From the NCBI GenBank assembly GCA_964562445.1, contig CAZLSZ010000001.1, positions 10,755 to 74,754 on the forward strand: a stretch of 64,000 nucleotides of DNA, given 5' to 3'. Shown here one piece after another: positions 43,907 through 56,408 of this stretch (positions are counted from its first letter, which is position 1; each line of letters begins with the position of its first letter). The DNA comes from an uncultured Gammaproteobacteria bacterium. Its GTDB lineage: Bacteria; Patescibacteriota; Microgenomatia; Levybacterales; UBA12049. A model generated the notes under the pieces. It had not been told where the DNA came from. It saw nothing but the letters and a program-made list of their open reading frames with translations, and ran no database searches. The translations under genes and the position numbers were made by a program.

Positions 43907-43981
43907 TTGGTACTTGCATTACCATAGACCGGATGCGATAATAGATTTATATCTAAATAAAATAGATAGAATAGTTTAGTG

Positions 43982-44052
43982 TCAGGATGCCATGAATCGA
44001 ACATGGACTACCGCACCCCCAGCGCGGTGTACTACCACTATACTACACCCTG
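43982..44052 (-). tRNA. tRNA-Pro (anticodon GGG), 71 nt, no encoded CCA
   Basis: Hand-folded minus strand: acceptor CAGGGTG/CATCCTG, D arm GTAT-AGTGGTA-GTAC, anticodon stem CCGCG/TGCGG with loop CTGGGGG (U33, GGG, G37), T arm CCATG-TTCGATT-CATGG, discriminator A. Confidence 0.8.
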
Positions 44053-48690: not shown

Positions 48691-49485
48691 ATGAAATACA
48701 TTCATATATTTCTTCTCAGCTTGCAGGATACAATGACCAGTTGGACAAGATCGCTTGTTTGGCTGCTTATTCCACTTATTAATGGCGGATTTTTTATGCT
48801 ATTTTGGTTCGCTGCATACAGGCATAATAACGCGGTGCTACCGGAATGGGATGTGCATAGTATAATGACATATTACCTGCTGCTTATTATTTTTCAGGCA
48901 TTATTAAATTCTCATATCGAAGAAAAGGTTGAGTCTGATATCAGGCACGGTAATCTCGTACAGTATCTCATCAAACCCTTCCCTTATTATGCGATGATGT
49001 ATTTGCTGGAATTACCTTATCGTATCATTCAGGGAGGATTCGGATTTCTCTTTTATATTGTAGCGGCATTCTTGTATCCTCCTATCAGGCTTCCTTTATT
49101 ATCTGCGGAAAAGATGATTATGGCATTTATTATCGTTATCTTTGCGTCTTTTCTTTTTCAAACATATAAAATGGTTACAGCGCTTATTTCGTTTTGGACG
49201 AAAGACAATAAGGGGCTTCAGGATACCTCTGTGGTTGCGATTCTTTTCTTTTCGGGGACAAATCTTCCGTTGGCATTTATGCCCGCTTGGCTGCAAAATA
49301 TTGCAAATCATCTGCCTTTTGCGTATTTCATTTATTATCCGATTATTAGCTTTCAAGGGAAGCTTTCAACCCATGAATTATGGAATGTGATCATTATCCA
49401 AATAGGATGGTTGGTATTTTTTGTATTGATTTATAAAATATTATTATATAACGGCTTGAAAAAGTTTACCGCAGTTGGACAATGA
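48691..49485 (+). CDS. ABC-2 family transporter permease
   Basis: Six TM helices. Follows the ATPase. Confidence 0.75.
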   Translation: MKYIHIFLLSLQDTMTSWTRSLVWLLIPLINGGFFMLFWFAAYRHNNAVLPEWDVHSIMTYYLLLIIFQALLNSHIEEKVESDIRHGNLVQYLIKPFPYYAMMYLLELPYRIIQGGFGFLFYIVAAFLYPPIRLPLLSAEKMIMAFIIVIFASFLFQTYKMVTALISFWTKDNKGLQDTSVVAILFFSGTNLPLAFMPAWLQNIANHLPFAYFIYYPIISFQGKLSTHELWNVIIIQIGWLVFFVLIYKILLYNGLKKFTAVGQ

Positions 49486-50270
49486 AAAAATATCTTACAA
49501 TATATAAGCAAATAAATACGATTAATATGGCGCAGTTTTTGGCGTATAGAGTGAATTTTTTTAATGAACTAATCGCGACAAGCGTCTGGACAGCTCTTAT
49601 TATTGCGACGATGTTGCTTCTTACCGATAAAGCGACGATGGTGGCGGGGTGGACACAGGGAGAGATGCTATTACTTTCCGCGACGATAATTATTATTTTG
49701 GGGATATTCGAAATTCATTTTAAACGGAGTTTTTTCCTGCTATCGGATACTATTTTTTATGGAAGATTAGATGGTTTGCTCGTTAAGCCTGTGGACAGTC
49801 AGTTTATGGTAAGTTTTTCGAGCTATAAAATAATGGGGATATGGAGAATGATGATCGGTATTATTTTTCTCATAGTGGTGCTTCATAAATTTCATATTGT
49901 ATACACAGGCTTTCAGTTATTACAATACATTATATTGGTAATTGTAGGTAATGTTATCTATTATTCATTATGGTTTATGATGGCTACACTACTTATTTGG
50001 AATCCGAGATTATCCAACATTTTAGATGTTATGAATTCCATGAATCATGCGAGTAGATTCCCTCCGGAGATGTTTAAGGAATTTAATATATTTCTTTTCT
50101 TATTTCTTTTTCCGTATATGATTTTAGTTTCGACTCCGGTGAAGATGCTTTTGCATAAAGCTACTATAGAAGATATCAGTGTATTGATTATAACTGCTTG
50201 CGGAATGTTTTGTTTTACCCGTTGGTTATGGAACTATTCTCTCCGTTATTACACGAGCGCGAGTGGTTGA
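49482..50270 (+). CDS. ABC-2 family transporter permease (second subunit)
   Basis: Six TM helices. Overlaps the previous gene by 4 nt. Confidence 0.75.
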   Translation: MKKYLTIYKQINTINMAQFLAYRVNFFNELIATSVWTALIIATMLLLTDKATMVAGWTQGEMLLLSATIIIILGIFEIHFKRSFFLLSDTIFYGRLDGLLVKPVDSQFMVSFSSYKIMGIWRMMIGIIFLIVVLHKFHIVYTGFQLLQYIILVIVGNVIYYSLWFMMATLLIWNPRLSNILDVMNSMNHASRFPPEMFKEFNIFLFLFLFPYMILVSTPVKMLLHKATIEDISVLIITACGMFCFTRWLWNYSLRYYTSASG

Positions 50271-50274
50271 TATA

Positions 50275-50610
50275 AAACGTTCTGGGAAGCGAGTAAGCCA
50301 GATTCTGTTCTCATCGCAATTTATCTATGCCCTCTCTTTGTTACTCCCTTGTGCAGGTAAATAGTATAACGTTCGGAGGTTGCAGGAGGTAGGATTGCCC
50401 GTTTCACACTCACTCGTCTCTGTTGCTCTCAGATTCTGTTGATTCAGAATCTGTTCTGAACTCCGTTATGTGAGTAAAAGAGATCAGACACTAGCGCTTC
50501 ACTCATTTCTGAGATATACGTCAGATGTTGCCACCCATCCCATGCACATACCCTGTCTGGACTTTCCTCCCGCCGGCTGGCGAGTAGCGATTCTCCTTCC
50601 CAGGACGTTT
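50275..50610 (-). ncRNA. rnpB: RNase P RNA (bacterial type, ~335 nt)
   Basis: Minus strand reads GGGAGGAAAGUCCAGACAGGGUAUGUGCAUGGG (P4 5' strand / CR-I) near 50570. The 3' end reads ACAGAAUCUGGCUUACUCGCUUCCCAGAAC (P4 3' strand / CR-V). AGUCCAGA:UCUGGCUU covaries against E. coli AGUCCGGG:CCCGGCUU. P1 strands GUCCUGGGAAG (50606-50596) / CUUCCCAGAAC (50289-50279) pair. The region is higher-GC and ORF-poor. Confidence 0.8.
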
Positions 50611-50650
50611 GGTTGGTATTGTAGTGAAATTATCCAAGAAATGCAACCTG

Positions 50651-51451
50651 TCAGTCAGGAATGGCATATTTGGGGTCGGCGACTTTATATACGCGTATAG
50701 CCCAGCAAGCGATTGCACGACCTCCTCTGCCGTCATGCGCCATAACTTGCAGTTGATAGAATCCTTCTTTGAGACCAAGATCTTTTACATTCCATATAAG
50801 TTGTAGACTTCTTCCTTTATCTTGATAAAAAATCTTTGGGGGGACAGGTTCTGCTCCATAACTTACTTTTATACCTTTGTATTGATCTCCTCCGTCTTCC
50901 TGATCACTATTATTATATGATCCTCGTATAAAAGTGGGGAAAAAGGGACGACCGCCTTTATCAACAGTGTTAGGGAATATATAGAGAGCAGGCTCCCAGA
51001 TATATCCATCAGGAGCTGTTGCGCTTCGATCTCCCATTGTTTTTATTTGTCCTGAACTTCTGTTAATTTTTTCTTCTGGCGCGACTCGGAAAGGAGCAGG
51101 ACCATTGAGCCATACTTTAATTTGCCCATCAGATCTGACCGCTGCTCCGTGCTCCGGCGAATACGCGATGATAAGTTCAGGATTCGTATTTGCGCCGCCT
51201 TTTCTGCAAAGAGATTCCGCAGGCGGAGTAATTGTAGCTCCGCCAAACATATAGAGTTGGAGTGTGCTTTCTTTTTTGCCTGCAACTTTGTCATTGATAA
51301 CGACTTCTTTCCCTAATGGGATAGGGGCTTGAGAAGGCGCAGGACCTGTGGCAAGAAACGCAAATCCGATGAGGATTGCCATGATAAGCATGATATAAAG
51401 CGCTCCTGTATTGATTCTTCCTATTGGATTAGGTGATGTATATTTCTGCAT
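50651..51451 (-). CDS. hypothetical exported protein (266 aa)
   Basis: N-terminal TM/signal ALYIMLIMAILIGFAFLATGPAPSQA. No motif. Confidence 0.55.
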   Translation of the reverse strand: MQKYTSPNPIGRINTGALYIMLIMAILIGFAFLATGPAPSQAPIPLGKEVVINDKVAGKKESTLQLYMFGGATITPPAESLCRKGGANTNPELIIAYSPEHGAAVRSDGQIKVWLNGPAPFRVAPEEKINRSSGQIKTMGDRSATAPDGYIWEPALYIFPNTVDKGGRPFFPTFIRGSYNNSDQEDGGDQYKGIKVSYGAEPVPPKIFYQDKGRSLQLIWNVKDLGLKEGFYQLQVMAHDGRGGRAIACWAIRVYKVADPKYAIPD

Positions 51452-51503: not shown

Positions 51504-54416
51504 TTACTTATGTGAACTGTTGCAAAGCATACTATATTCGCATGTTTTGCAGATGATTGATCCGCTGCATGTGAAGCTGCTTTTTGAGATTTCATCTACT
51601 TTTTGAACGATATATTCCTTTGCTTCCTCCAATTGTTCAGGTGTTCTGGTAGTTGAAACTTTTTTATTTTCTTCCAGGTAATATAATGTGAGAAGCACAT
51701 CCTCAGGTTTTTTATGAAGTAACGCATCATTTACCTCAGTTGCGGCGATACCGTAAAGAGACAACTGTAAATCGTCTTTTGCTTTTTTTTCAGTGAGTAC
51801 ATTTTTTCCAGTTTTATAATCAATAATTTCTATTTTTCCATTGGGAAGCCGGTCAATGCGATCAATTCTTCCGCTTATTTTTAATTTACCGATCATAAAA
51901 GAAAACGGCATTTCAACAGTCGCGACAGGCGGGATATTCTTTATATTCTCTTGCGCAAGTTTTGTTACCATCCGAAGTGCCTGTGTATATGTTTGTTCTT
52001 CATGTTGCTTGCTGGTATATCCGGCCGATACCCAATTTGTTTTCAGATAATTCTCCATGTCTTCGCGGCTGGCTGTGCTATTTTGTTTAAGATCTTGGAA
52101 GAAGTCTCTCAATGCTCCGTGTACACTTACTCCATAGCTGAGAGCAGGAGAGGGTTGAGACGGCATATTGAGAATATATCGGAGTTTGTAATGCAATGGA
52201 CAGGTAAGATATGTCTGTAATTGTGAGTACGAAATATAGGTAATATCCAGCGGTTCCCGTATCTCTTTTTCAGGAATTTTCTCTTCCACGATATTTGTAT
52301 TGAACACGTCAAGGAGTGAAAGCTGCTGTGCATCAGCTGCTACTGTTTGTTTTTTTATCAGCTGATGCACAGTAGCCTCTCCTAATGTTTCAGTAACAAA
52401 CGGTGACAATTTACGTTCCCGTTTGCCTTCATTATAAAAACGCGCTGCTGTTAGGTAGAGTTTTTCTTTTGCACGAGTGATCGCGACATAGAAAAGTCGT
52501 CTCTCTTCTTGGATTCCTTCATCTCCTTCCGGAAGCGCTTCACGGATAATATCGGGTGGAAGAGGAATTTGTTCTTTTCTGTCTCTACTTGGAAATCTCT
52601 GCGCGACGAGATTAACCACAAAAACATACGGAAATTCAAGTCCTTTGCTTGAATGCACAGTCAGAATATTGACGGCGTTATTGCGTGTCCAGTCCATCTC
52701 CGCCGCAAGCGGACTTTCCCCAAGTTCCATAGCTAGATCAATCCAGTCAACCACTGCAAAGACAGAAATATCTTTTTTATTGTGGGAATATGTTTGCAGT
52801 TTATTAAAAAATTTCGCGATATTTTGCGCTTCATTTTCTGTTTTGAGAGAACCGGGATCCAAATAATGTCCTAAGAGTCCGCTTTCCTCAAAAAATTGAT
52901 ACAGAATCTGCCCCGCGGATTCATGCGGCACGAGTTCAAGATGCTTTTTCAGCATTGTGATAAGAGATATAATTTTTTCTTTACCTTCTTTTGTCAGCAT
53001 TGTTTCCTCAACCTTTTCCATCGCTTCAAAAAGTGTTATATTACTTTGTTTTGAAAAATTCAGCATCGCTGATATATCACGTGCTTGTAGCGCGAAAATC
53101 GGCATCGTCATTACTCTATAGAGAGAAGATGTGTCTTCAAAGTTTGCCAATACATGTAAGTAGGCGATAAGATCTTTTATCTCTTCCTGTTGGTAGAGAT
53201 GATCCGGTCCGAGAAATTGAAATGGGATATGTAATCGATCCAGTGCTCTTTTAAATGGAATTGCGTGATCATTAGCACGGACAAGAATCGCGAAATCATT
53301 GTATGGACGATGTGTTTTTTTCACTTCTTTTTGTATTTCTTTGGCGACTCGTTCCGCTTCATCTTCTCCTCGCGCTTCATAGATAAATTCTATTTGTTCT
53401 CCTTTCTCTCCACGCATACCGATAAGTTTTTTATCTATTTTTTCTTTAATCTCTAGCCTGTCGGGATTATTTTGTTGGATAAGCGTATATGCCGCGTCCA
53501 AAATATTTTGTGTAGAACGATAATTTTTTGTCAAAGCGATAATTTTGCATCCGGGGAAGTGCGAGCGAAATTGCATCATATTTGCGATTGCTGCTCCTCT
53601 CCACCGATAAATACTTTGATCATCATCTCCCACGACTGTTATATTTTTCCGTTGTCCTGCCAGAAGAATTGCCATTTCGTTTTGGGCGAAATTTGTATCC
53701 TGAAATTCATCTACGAAAACATATTGAAATTGTCGCTGGTATTGTTTGAGTACTGACGGACGTTCCCGAAATAATTTCAGCGTATTGCTGATAAGATCCG
53801 AATAATCCATAACGCCTTCTTTTGCTTTCAGATCAGCGTACATCGTAAATGTCTGCGCGAGCTCCATGATTTTTTGTTTTTCGTCATCTTCAATCGTCTT
53901 ATCTTTCATGATACGATTTGCGTACGCGATGTATTGCTCCGGAGTTATGTCATCATCCCGCAGTCTGCTGAAATGTGTGAGCATTCCTTGGAGAAATTTT
54001 GTAGGATTTCCGAATGGACGAAAATATGATAGGTTGAAATCAAACAAATGTTTTCGCATAAAAAGTAAACATTCTGCTTCAGACATCAGCGTGAACGATC
54101 CGTTGAGACCGATATGAATGGCGTTTTGTCGCAAGACTCTGTCACAAAATGCATGGAATGTTTCTATCCAAAGTGTTGCGTACCCATACGGAAGGATTTC
54201 GTCAATTCTGCTTTCCATCTCCTGTGCTGCTTTATCAGTAAAGGTGAGCGCAAGGATATTTGACGGAGGAATATTTTTTTCAAGGATAAGGTGTTCTATA
54301 CGTTTGGTAACGACAGTTGTTTTCCCTGTCCCCGCGCCGGCAATAATGAGTAATGGATCGGTACCATGTGTCACTGCTGCTTGTTGTTCTTTATTGAGTG
54401 AGGATATATCGGGCAT
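51504..54416 (-). CDS. UvrD/PcrA-family SF1 helicase fused to C-terminal Cas4/RecB-type Fe-S PD-(D/E)XK nuclease (AddA/AdnB-like helicase-nuclease)
   Basis: Helicase motifs: IIAGAGTGKTT (I), VFVDEFQDTN (II), TKNYRSTQNIL (IV), VHSSKGLEFPYVFV (V), LFYVAITRAKEKLYL (VI). Nuclease: CPLHYKL, EIIDYKTGK, LQLSLYG, CSGSIICKTCEYSMLC. Confidence 0.85.
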   Translation of the reverse strand: MPDISSLNKEQQAAVTHGTDPLLIIAGAGTGKTTVVTKRIEHLILEKNIPPSNILALTFTDKAAQEMESRIDEILPYGYATLWIETFHAFCDRVLRQNAIHIGLNGSFTLMSEAECLLFMRKHLFDFNLSYFRPFGNPTKFLQGMLTHFSRLRDDDITPEQYIAYANRIMKDKTIEDDEKQKIMELAQTFTMYADLKAKEGVMDYSDLISNTLKLFRERPSVLKQYQRQFQYVFVDEFQDTNFAQNEMAILLAGQRKNITVVGDDDQSIYRWRGAAIANMMQFRSHFPGCKIIALTKNYRSTQNILDAAYTLIQQNNPDRLEIKEKIDKKLIGMRGEKGEQIEFIYEARGEDEAERVAKEIQKEVKKTHRPYNDFAILVRANDHAIPFKRALDRLHIPFQFLGPDHLYQQEEIKDLIAYLHVLANFEDTSSLYRVMTMPIFALQARDISAMLNFSKQSNITLFEAMEKVEETMLTKEGKEKIISLITMLKKHLELVPHESAGQILYQFFEESGLLGHYLDPGSLKTENEAQNIAKFFNKLQTYSHNKKDISVFAVVDWIDLAMELGESPLAAEMDWTRNNAVNILTVHSSKGLEFPYVFVVNLVAQRFPSRDRKEQIPLPPDIIREALPEGDEGIQEERRLFYVAITRAKEKLYLTAARFYNEGKRERKLSPFVTETLGEATVHQLIKKQTVAADAQQLSLLDVFNTNIVEEKIPEKEIREPLDITYISYSQLQTYLTCPLHYKLRYILNMPSQPSPALSYGVSVHGALRDFFQDLKQNSTASREDMENYLKTNWVSAGYTSKQHEEQTYTQALRMVTKLAQENIKNIPPVATVEMPFSFMIGKLKISGRIDRIDRLPNGKIEIIDYKTGKNVLTEKKAKDDLQLSLYGIAATEVNDALLHKKPEDVLLTLYYLEENKKVSTTRTPEQLEEAKEYIVQKVDEISKSSFTCSGSIICKTCEYSMLCNSSHK

Positions 54417-54446: not shown

Positions 54447-56408
54447 TTGTATACTTATGTTATGGATATGTTGACAAATTTTTTTTGGGGAATTATTACT
54501 TTTTTTATGATTTTTGTAGGATCGATATTTTTTGTCATTATATTCGGAATCCTTTTATATAGAGTATTTTTGCGATTAAGATACAATAAGTTATTGAAAA
54601 AAAATTTAGAATCAAGAGAACGGTTAGTATTAGAAGTAAAAATATCAGAAAATAATGAAAGAAAAGAAGAGGGAATGGTAGCATTTCTTCGGTCACTCCA
54701 TAGATTTTTATCATCGGGTACAGTTATTAGTTTGGAGATAGTTTCGAGTAAACAATTTCTTTCTTATTATATAGTTACTACTAGAAATAAAAGACAAATT
54801 ATAGAATCTCAATTTTACGCTCAATTTCCCGATGCTGAGATTATGGAAGTAAAAGATTATCTTTCCCAATGGAAAGAAAATACCGAATATGCTGAACTTT
54901 CATATAAACAGCATAGCATGGCAGCATTAAAGAGCTACGAAAATAGTGATGAAGATATATTGAAAAATTTGTCAGCACTACTTGCCAAAAGTGACATGCA
55001 GGATGAGGTTGCAATTCAGTTGGTCATGGAAAGAATTGGAGCAAAGTCGATGAAACAAGGATTTTTTGCACTGTATTATAAAATTTTGAATTCATCAAAT
55101 GAGAGTAAAGCAACACAAAAATTATCACAGCATCTTTTTCTGGGGAAATTGCGTATTGCTTACACATCCCGTACAAAGCGTGAGGCGAGAATGAAATTAC
55201 ATACCTTTTTACCTATATTCAAGTCAGTAAAAAGTTCGAGTAATGAGCTCGTCAAAAAATCATCGTTTTTCCCCATTGTTCTTGCAAAAGCATTTGCGGC
55301 TCGAATATTTGAACAAGGAGATCTCTGGTCAATTCCGGAAATTGTTACACTCTATCATTTCCCGACAAAAGAAAATACATTTTCCAATGTAGTACGAGCT
55401 CATTCTAAAAGGGCTGCTCCACCTGATATCCTTCCTCGGGAAGGACAGTATCGGCCCGGGCAAATAGCATTAATTGGGGAAACAAATTACCGAAATGAAA
55501 AGATACCATTTGGTATTTTGGATGAAGACAGGAGAAGACATTTGTATGTTATCGGGAAAACAGGTGTTGGGAAAAGTCGATTTTTGGAATTATTGATGAT
55601 GAATGATATACAGCAGGAGAAGGGATTTTGTTTATTAGACCCTCATGGTGATTTGGCAGAAGCAGTCGTTAAACGTGTTCCTAAAAATCGTATCAAAGAT
55701 GTTGTATACGTAGATCCGTCGGATAGAGATTTTCCTATCGGGTTTAACCCATTGGAATATACAGATAATTATGAAAAAAGGCAGCATATCGCTTATTTTT
55801 TTATTGCGATATTTAAAAAATTATTTGCTTCTGACTGGAATGAACGAATGGAACACATTTTGCGAAATATTGTTCTTGCACTATTGGAGACACAGGATTC
55901 AAATGTCTTGGGTATAAATAGGATAATAACCGATACACAATATCGGCATAGGGTAATCAATCAGTTGCATGACCCTGTCGTTAAACAATTTTGGGCAAAT
56001 GAATTTTCATCGTGGAATGAACAATATTCGTCACAGGCAATAGTCCCGATCCTCAATAAAGTAGGGCAGTTTATCAGCAATCCTATCATCCGTAATATGG
56101 TTGGTCAGCAAAAAAATATGCTCGACTTTACGTCATTTATGAATGAAGGCAAGATTGTCATCCTGAATATTTCAAAGGGAAAACTTGGAGAAGATAATGC
56201 GGCATTATTGGGATCTATGTTTATTACCAAAATACAGCAAGCTGCTCTCTCACGGGCAAACATCTCTGAAGAAGAGCGAAAAGATTTTTATTTTTATATT
56301 GATGAATTCCAGAATTTTGCAACTGATGCCTTTCAATCAATTCTATCGGAATCCAGGAAATATCGACTCAATTTGACGATTGCGCATCAATATATAGATC
56401 AGCTATAA
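54447..56408 (+). CDS. TraG/VirD4-like (type IV coupling protein / FtsK-HerA superfamily) membrane-anchored P-loop ATPase, terminated by an in-frame TAA
   Basis: N-terminal TM helices. Walker A HLYVIGKTGVGKSRF. CLLDPHGDLAE (VirD4-like DPxGE). Walker B-like FYFYIDEFQNF. Ends ...TIAHQYIDQL immediately before the TAA. Confidence 0.7.
   Translation: MYTYVMDMLTNFFWGIITFFMIFVGSIFFVIIFGILLYRVFLRLRYNKLLKKNLESRERLVLEVKISENNERKEEGMVAFLRSLHRFLSSGTVISLEIVSSKQFLSYYIVTTRNKRQIIESQFYAQFPDAEIMEVKDYLSQWKENTEYAELSYKQHSMAALKSYENSDEDILKNLSALLAKSDMQDEVAIQLVMERIGAKSMKQGFFALYYKILNSSNESKATQKLSQHLFLGKLRIAYTSRTKREARMKLHTFLPIFKSVKSSSNELVKKSSFFPIVLAKAFAARIFEQGDLWSIPEIVTLYHFPTKENTFSNVVRAHSKRAAPPDILPREGQYRPGQIALIGETNYRNEKIPFGILDEDRRRHLYVIGKTGVGKSRFLELLMMNDIQQEKGFCLLDPHGDLAEAVVKRVPKNRIKDVVYVDPSDRDFPIGFNPLEYTDNYEKRQHIAYFFIAIFKKLFASDWNERMEHILRNIVLALLETQDSNVLGINRIITDTQYRHRVINQLHDPVVKQFWANEFSSWNEQYSSQAIVPILNKVGQFISNPIIRNMVGQQKNMLDFTSFMNEGKIVILNISKGKLGEDNAALLGSMFITKIQQAALSRANISEEERKDFYFYIDEFQNFATDAFQSILSESRKYRLNLTIAHQYIDQL

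Follow-up and report, generated by a model that had tools for sequence, protein, structure and literature searches.

An RNase P RNA gene of a Levybacteria-like CPR bacterium with a candidate pseudoknot at the site of helix P12

RNase P trims tRNA precursors. The RNA subunit of this enzyme is encoded by rnpB; it is among the few universal ribozymes and is used as a marker of genome completeness. An initial annotation of a 64-kb stretch of DNA (64,000 nucleotides, hereafter the window), made from the letters of the sequence, placed an RNase P RNA on the minus strand between an ABC-2 permease gene and the next ORF. The locus raises two questions: is this indeed an RNase P RNA gene, given that no curated model recognizes it at its threshold, and what occupies the part of the molecule in which the P12 helix is ordinarily found? 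We used covariance models, comparative genomics and covariation analysis to address them.

The window segment 50282-50603, 322 nt on the minus strand (the strand of all RNA features given below), is an RNase P RNA gene. It lies, as had been proposed, between the permease gene (49482-50270, PF06182) and an ORF of 266 aa whose N-terminus is hydrophobic (50651-51451), and it carries the CR-I and CR-V blocks that had been reported on this strand (GGAAAGUCC at 50567-50559 and ACAGAAUCUGGCUUA at 50308-50294, respectively). The gapped signature extending from CR-I to CR-V, with a spacing like that of RNase P, has a single instance in the 64 kb and none in 100 dinucleotide-preserving shuffles. When the region alone was searched with permissive filters, the best Rfam match was to the archaeal model RF00373, spanning positions 1-288 of its 288 at 64.3 bits (E = 2e-17), which is significant but below the gathering score of 84. 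The initial annotation had looked to a bit score above the gathering threshold of RF00010 or RF00011; no RNase P model reached its gathering score, the sole match at a curated threshold in the whole window being a tRNA. Neither of the two outcomes that it had named as fatal to the assignment, namely the lack of any significant covariance-model match and a P4 helix unable to form, was encountered. The GC content over the gene is 0.44-0.49 as against 0.29-0.40 in the adjoining ABC genes, in line with the elevated value noticed at the outset, and the two overlapping ORFs dismissed as spurious (50470-50700 on the plus strand and 50521-50778 on the minus strand) are both present, neither matching a Pfam family at E <= 1. 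Thermodynamic folding places the RNA modestly ahead of shuffled sequences (z = -2.0), as is to be expected of an RNA rich in pseudoknots.

The outer limits first given to the gene, 50275-50610, stand only in part. They coincide with a possible extension of P1 by 6 bp, AAACGU (50610-50605) with ACGUUU (50280-50275), followed by a U-run; this pairing exists in the window sequence and is specific to it, being 59% paired and mostly gaps in 57 relatives, and the conserved RNA is confined to 50282-50603. Upstream of P1 by about 20 nt is a weak candidate for a sigma-70-like promoter (50629-50658; -35 CTGACT, -10 GATAAT), the single site found in a scan for which 1.3 are expected by chance. A terminator scan found none, and both scans are at chance level. 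A search of the 64-kb window for the L34/rnpA signature found no match.

To place this RNA among its relatives, species-representative genomes were scanned with the P4 strands of the window RNA itself, yielding at least 120 loci, many of them from Patescibacteria, and a metagenome scan with a pattern leaving the six pseudoknot bases free yielded another 120. Among the matches listed, the most similar RNAs are from metagenome-assembled genomes (MAGs) of Levybacteria and other Patescibacteria. The alignments were made with MAFFT anchored by the invariant blocks; that of the specificity domain comprises 100 distinct sequences, and that of the catalytic domain 57 relatives aligned with L-INS-i.

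The window RNA displays CR-I to CR-V, P4 with its bulged U, P1-P3, P5-P9, P11 and P15-P17. The full CR-I block, GAGGAAAGUCC (50559-50569), is invariant in the 100 relatives, and its core GGAAAGUCC pairs with ACAGAAnnnGGCUUA of CR-V to form P4 with a bulged U. More precisely, the 5' strand of P4, composed of AAG (50564-50562), the bulged U (50561) and CCAGA (50560-50556), pairs with UCUGGCUU, with UCUGG (50302-50298) and CUU (50297-50295) constituting the 3' strand inside CR-V (50294-50308). The claim that P4 and P1 form with changes relative to Escherichia coli is upheld: distal P4 is CCAGA/UCUGG versus CCGG/CCGG in E. coli. P4 is 100% paired and nearly invariant across the 57 relatives, and its distal part covaries in metagenomic sequences that had not been selected on those bases (AGA/UCU in 84, AGG/CCU in 3 and GGA/UCC in 2). 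Helices of the catalytic domain are in general about 90-100% paired in these relatives. P1 (CUGGGAAG at 50603-50596 with CUUCCCAG at 50289-50282) is 92.5% paired and covaries; P2 (AUCGC at 50587-50591 with GCGAU at 50317-50313) is 90.2% paired with CG/UA covariation; and the P3 hairpin, CUCGCC-AGCC-GGCGGG (50569-50584), is 89.6% paired, showing many pair types and covariation. P15 (CCUC/GAGG), P16 (GUUAU/GUAAC) and P17 with its loop are found at 50331-50379, with P15 and P16 being 97.8% and 97.2% paired, respectively, both with covariation. P17 is proposed from CCU/AGG of the window, and is about 56-57% paired in an alignment that misaligned it. As MAFFT misaligned both P17 and P6 (56% paired), the P6 pseudoknot between UGUGCA of J5/7 (50543-50548) and UGCACA of the P17 loop (50355-50350) was assessed in an alignment-free manner: uninterrupted Watson-Crick complementarity between J5/7 and the P17 loop extends, at its longest, for 6.5 nt on average versus 4.5 nt in shuffled sequences, with many different complementary haplotypes. 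Thus, the P6 pseudoknot that accompanies P16/P17 in class A RNAs is present. CR-IV in J15/2, AUAGAUAAAU (50319-50328), directly follows P15, which means that the P18 hairpin is absent; this is seen in the sequence itself. The 3' part of the RNA, 132 nt in length, falls in the shortest class, and the window sequence has no room for either P5.1 or P15.1. J16/15 is AAAGA (50339-50335), and the GGU expected in this L15 segment is missing from the window and from all 57 relatives.

The sub-threshold score is not peculiar to the window gene. All eight of its closest relatives are full-length yet likewise sub-threshold, at 63-76 bits with RF00373 or 49-61 bits with RF00010, and among 18 related signature-bearing loci only three attain any gathering score, one of them on the archaeal model; the limited sensitivity of the Rfam models for CPR RNAs is already known (PMC8172020). 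A score below every Rfam threshold, in combination with only 64 kb of the genome being visible, is what might be seen if this were a decaying or redundant rnpB copy, with the working RNase P, either another rnpB or the protein-only HARP, being encoded elsewhere in the genome. We regard such decay as very improbable: the universally conserved blocks are all intact, the gene neighborhood is conserved, the eight relatives score just as far below threshold, and more than 100 distinct relatives preserve the architecture through compensatory changes, which points to purifying selection on the structure. The score of the archaeal model, which is the best for the window and for three of the eight relatives, could also be taken to mean that an archaeal-type RNase P RNA was acquired by horizontal transfer. 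The remaining five relatives score best with the bacterial class A model, the RNAs of the CPR form a graded series from the standard type A to the form in the window, and all flanking genes are bacterial; on these grounds an archaeal origin was rejected, and we accord it hardly any probability at all. The archaeal model most likely prevails because it has no P13, P14 or P18 for whose absence a sequence would be penalized.

The flanking bacterial genes code for RecA, RNase Y, an ABC ATPase with two ABC-2 permeases, and a UvrD helicase fused to a PD-(D/E)XK nuclease. The order RecA, RNase Y, ABC transporter, rnpB and UvrD-nuclease is common to MAGs of Levybacteria, Daviesbacteria and Microgenomates, with protein identities of 50-77%, and this shared order places the window gene in a Microgenomatia/Levybacteria-like CPR bacterium. 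The 970-aa UvrD-nuclease fusion (51504-54416, minus strand; AddA/PcrA-like) is conserved beside rnpB across the lineage, and a helicase gene is close to rnpB in several of the 120 genome-collection relatives (L001-L120). Between the two genes lies the minus-strand 266-aa ORF, which has no Pfam family and no tblastn match among those 120 loci. Divergent from the UvrD-nuclease gene is a gene for a TraG/VirD4/HerA-like ATPase (54447-56408, plus strand) with weak Pfam matches. Two sub-threshold matches to RF03531, described as a C. difficile sRNA included into a helicase gene, fall within UvrD-like coding sequence (L049, 6376-6475; L089, 4177-4271), and most likely reflect conserved coding sequence rather than an RNA. 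Among the related loci, six MAGs labeled as uncultured Gammaproteobacteria (L017, L022, L027, L033, L034 and L108) have CPR synteny and CPR-type RNase P RNAs, and one labeled as a Bathyarchaeia archaeon (L018) has an RNase P RNA of bacterial class A, at 100.8 bits; these labels conflict with the content and are likely to result from mislabeling or contamination.

The initial annotation had looked for a full P10-P12 fold, which is not present: the P12, P13, P14 and P18 hairpins are absent, and in their stead there are two extra hairpins and a predicted pseudoknot. The specificity domain contains P8, GGGUG-GCAA-CAUCU (50536-50523; 98.8% paired, with all five pairs covarying), and P9, CGU...GCG with an inner CUCA-GAAA-UGAG extension (50520-50495; 96.9% paired, 3 of 3 pairs covarying). 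There follow two inserted hairpins, termed A and B, between P10 and P11/CR-II, the position at which type B RNAs carry P10.1. Hairpin A (50455-50488) has the stem UCUGAUCUC/GAGUUCAGA with one U.U mismatch and a 16-nt loop, UUUUACUCACAUAACG; in the 100 relatives it is 97.5% paired, all nine of its pairs covary, and it occupies top ranks in a blind mutual-information scan. Hairpin B, CAGAUUCUG-AAUCAA-CAGAAUCUG (50430-50453), is 99.3% paired in the same set, with eight of nine pairs covarying. Its G-C closed loop, of the form AAUYRA, is nearly invariant in the RNAs of WWE3, Saccharibacteria, Gottesmanbacteria and Levybacteria, and this conservation suggests a tertiary or protein contact, perhaps one substituting for the contacts of L14 and L18 with P8. 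Another recurrent element, the palindromic hairpin CCCGAU-UUA/UAA-AUCGGG, is found in the hairpin A loop, P9 or P16/17 of RNase P RNAs of relatives, sometimes twice in one RNA (L023, L036, L045, L121, L141, L166, L173, L182, L183, L191, L202, L210 and L227, none of which is the window). It was counted 31 times in the 1.79 Mb of DNA retrieved, and 22 of these copies fall within RNase P RNA, which accounts for about 5% of the total. The element may serve to bind a protein or to make a tertiary contact, or it may be a small mobile insertion.

CR-II, AGAGCAACAGAGACGA (50429-50414), which ends in ACAGAGACGA, and CR-III, GUGAAACGG (50407-50399), are each present and invariant in the 100 relatives, as is AUAGAUAAAU of CR-IV. 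P11, formed by GC (50426-50425) with GC (50398-50397), covaries, its first pair being GC in 90 and GU in 10 sequences, and its second CG in 80, UA in 15 and GC in 2. To our knowledge, a P12 hairpin intervenes between CR-II and CR-III in every ordinary RNase P RNA. The class A P12 hairpin is absent from this interval in the window: the spacing between the two blocks is 6-7 nt versus 16-38 nt in other CPR RNase P RNAs, a comparison that omits apparent short P12 lengths (e.g. L022, L053, L063 and L107), these being regular-expression artefacts. CR-III is in turn followed by merely 3 nt before the returning 3' strands of P11 and P7, which means that P13 and P14 are absent as well.

The only sequence between CR-II and CR-III, GUGAGU (50408-50413), is complementary to ACUCAC (50470-50475) in the loop of hairpin A. 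The 5-bp core of this pairing is 97.6% paired across the 100 sequences, as compared with 23-59% when one strand is slid; for the S-domain structure as a whole the corresponding values are 91.3% and 35-43% with the partner strand slid, and its covariation score was attained by none of 500 shuffles. The core exhibits 64 two-sided changes, a number reached by none of 500 shuffles (15 +- 3), and 21 distinct haplotypes; 16 of these pair throughout the core, and the poorest three are alignment shifts of 1 nt. When all 8,911 column pairs were ranked blindly by APC-corrected mutual information, four of the pseudoknot pairs took places 13, 18, 25 and 34, preceded by pairs of P8, P9, P11 and hairpins A and B, one pair extending hairpin A, and a few pairs of neighboring columns. 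Moreover, 39 pairs of nearest-neighbor sequences differ by a compensated double change at this site, one such pair being 99% identical elsewhere. The sixth pair, A-U in the window, is unconserved (35% paired). From this covariation we conclude that the pairing of loop A with the linker is real and constitutes an H-type pseudoknot with hairpin A, and given its strength P12 seems to have been replaced by a long-range pseudoknot rather than simply lost.

A different reading of the same complementarity is that P12 has simply been lost, and that ACUCAC pairs with GUGAGU only in a competing fold that excludes hairpin A, or at an intermediate stage of folding. The centroid structure indeed pairs the two strands only by dissolving hairpin A, thermodynamic folding being incapable of showing both helices at once, and the sole paper on the P12-less class of CPR RNAs, in the part of it that deals with them, terms P12 'missing' (PMC8172020). 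Against this, strong covariation is seen in the same 100 sequences for hairpin A and for the loop-linker pairing alike, and the H-type topology appears sterically ordinary by inspection, with a first loop of 4 nt, a second of 6 nt and a long third loop. We therefore consider simple loss improbable, if less so than decay or an archaeal origin. All told, the best explanation of the locus, to which we assign a probability of roughly 0.9, is that it is a functional RNase P RNA gene of a Microgenomatia/Levybacteria-like CPR bacterium, with a remodeled specificity domain and a pseudoknot at the P12 site.

The pseudoknot would supply the helix that is normally provided by P12, closing and bracing the CR-II/CR-III module, the part that would read the tRNA elbow. 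It may take the same three-dimensional place as P12, with the proviso that the geometry of a hairpin cannot be matched exactly by one strand that links CR-II with CR-III. With the catalytic core and the tRNA-elbow module intact and under structural selection, the function of the RNA is most likely the ordinary one, whereby together with an RnpA encoded elsewhere it would cleave the 5' leaders off pre-tRNAs. Substrate recognition would in this enzyme proceed without the pairing of GGU to CCA, in keeping with tRNA genes that lack an encoded CCA. The encoded CCA is missing from 16 of 18 tRNA genes, the window included, all 18 being the same syntenic tRNA; the agreement with the missing GGU is suggestive only, as it concerns a single syntenic tRNA-Pro gene. 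In the window this gene, tRNA-Pro(GGG), is found at 43981-44052 on the minus strand and adjoins recA; it has no encoded 3'-CCA, as is also the case at 15 of 17 related loci.

The CPR RNase P RNAs collected in this analysis fall into three architectural classes. Class I, seen in Chisholm-, Woese-, Collier- and some Daviesbacteria, has neither hairpin A nor B and retains the P12 hairpin along with P13/P14. Class II, seen in WWE3, Saccharibacteria and Gottesmanbacteria, has both inserted hairpins and a normal P12 hairpin, with P13/P14 being absent. Class III, seen in Levybacteria, some Microgenomates and the window, also has the inserted hairpins and no P13/P14, and its P12 site is reduced to 7 nt. 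In class II, hairpin A is mostly capped by a GAAA tetraloop. A receptor within P12 is the docking site of the P10.1 tetraloop in type B RNase P RNAs (PMC11779636), and P10.1 is regarded as a late, stabilizing expansion (PMC12974513). On the simplest reading, CPR lineages independently gained a P10.1-like brace for P12, which took the place of P13/P14, and the lineage of the window later lost the distal portion of P12, with the contact being turned into direct base pairing. The pseudoknot probably evolved from a tetraloop contact that may persist in class II, where the classical 11-nt receptor in P12 is detectable in some sequences only. That the Levybacteria/Microgenomatia RNAs are an undescribed structural class, in which P12 has been replaced by a P10.1-like loop-linker pseudoknot through conversion of a tetraloop contact into a Watson-Crick helix, appears to us slightly better than an even proposition. 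The view offered at the outset that so short an RNA is a feature of reduced genomes is, in this light, only loosely right: the molecule has been trimmed, yet it has also been expanded in a lineage-specific manner.

These observations have practical consequences, since the window gene and every close relative tested are invisible at curated Rfam thresholds, and many CPR genomes will consequently appear to be without rnpB. This annotation gap would be closed by a covariance model specific to the lineage and trained on the roughly 100 sequences collected; if P12 has been replaced as proposed, such a dedicated model would bring to light rnpB in many CPR genomes that now have no annotated copy. In that event, the published 'P12-missing' CPR RNAs would in fact keep the function of P12, and the covariation described here would offer a testable example of an RNA that loses a conserved hairpin yet retains the helix by means of the loop of a neighboring insertion. 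It would also bear on how the module reading the tRNA elbow is stabilized, and on convergent solutions to this problem in type B and CPR RNAs.

The closest known counterparts of the window RNA are those reported by Lui, Nielsen and Arkin in 2021, who had to relax the cutoffs before RNase P RNA came to light in 10 of 35 circular CPR genomes; in the relevant passages of their report, P13, P14, P16 and P17 are described as often absent, the UGG motif as lacking from 23 of the 35, and a pair of Microgenomatia RNAs as 'missing P12, P13, P14 and P18' and without the UGG motif (PMC8172020). The window gene shares all features of this form, namely a CPR host, a sub-threshold score, the absence of P12, P13, P14 and P18, and no UGG/GGU. 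As far as those passages describe them, the two RNAs (SRX3307784_bin_224 and ERX2165959_bin_53) come from the same bacterial class as the window, being below the Rfam cutoffs and devoid of both these helices and the L15 UGG/GGU (PMC8172020). The difference, comparing by description only, is that P12 is said to be missing in the text of that report, whereas in the window its site is apparently filled by a pseudoknot. Hence, the window gene is a further member of the diverged CPR RNase P RNAs reported in 2021, with the predicted pseudoknot going beyond what is described in those passages (PMC8172020). In the full-text literature outside subscription-only journals, we found, besides PMC8172020, no article that connects RNase P RNA to CPR, Patescibacteria or Microgenomates, nor any in which this pseudoknot is described.

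With class A RNAs (RF00010, typified by E. coli M1 RNA) the window RNA shares CR-I to CR-V, P1-P5, P7-P11, P15-P17, P6 and the order of domains; it differs in being without P12, P13/P14, P18 and the L15 GGU and in having two hairpins added between P10 and P11, and its relatives score 49-61 bits against the RF00010 gathering score of 100. The likeness to class B RNAs (RF00011, typified by Bacillus) lies in an extra P10.1-like hairpin between P10 and P11 that contacts the P12 site and in the absence of P13/P14. However, the window RNA has two hairpins in this place, its contact would be a Watson-Crick pairing to a single strand rather than the docking of a tetraloop on a hairpin, and it keeps P6, P16 and P17 and has neither P5.1 nor P15.1. 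In other words, hairpins A and B occupy the class B P10.1 position and the loop of A is predicted to contact the P12 site, the likeness being one of position and contact. Archaeal type A RNAs (RF00373) furnish the best-scoring model and are, like the window RNA, without P13, P14 and P18; in contrast, the host of the window gene is bacterial, its 64.3 bits fall below 84, and P12 is present in the archaeal RNAs. P12-less RNase P RNAs have also been noted elsewhere, in Mycoplasma fermentans and in type T of the Thermoproteaceae (as cited in PMC8172020). Judging from that citation, these are outright reductions, whereas the window RNA keeps the CR-II/CR-III module together with what appears to be a replacement helix.
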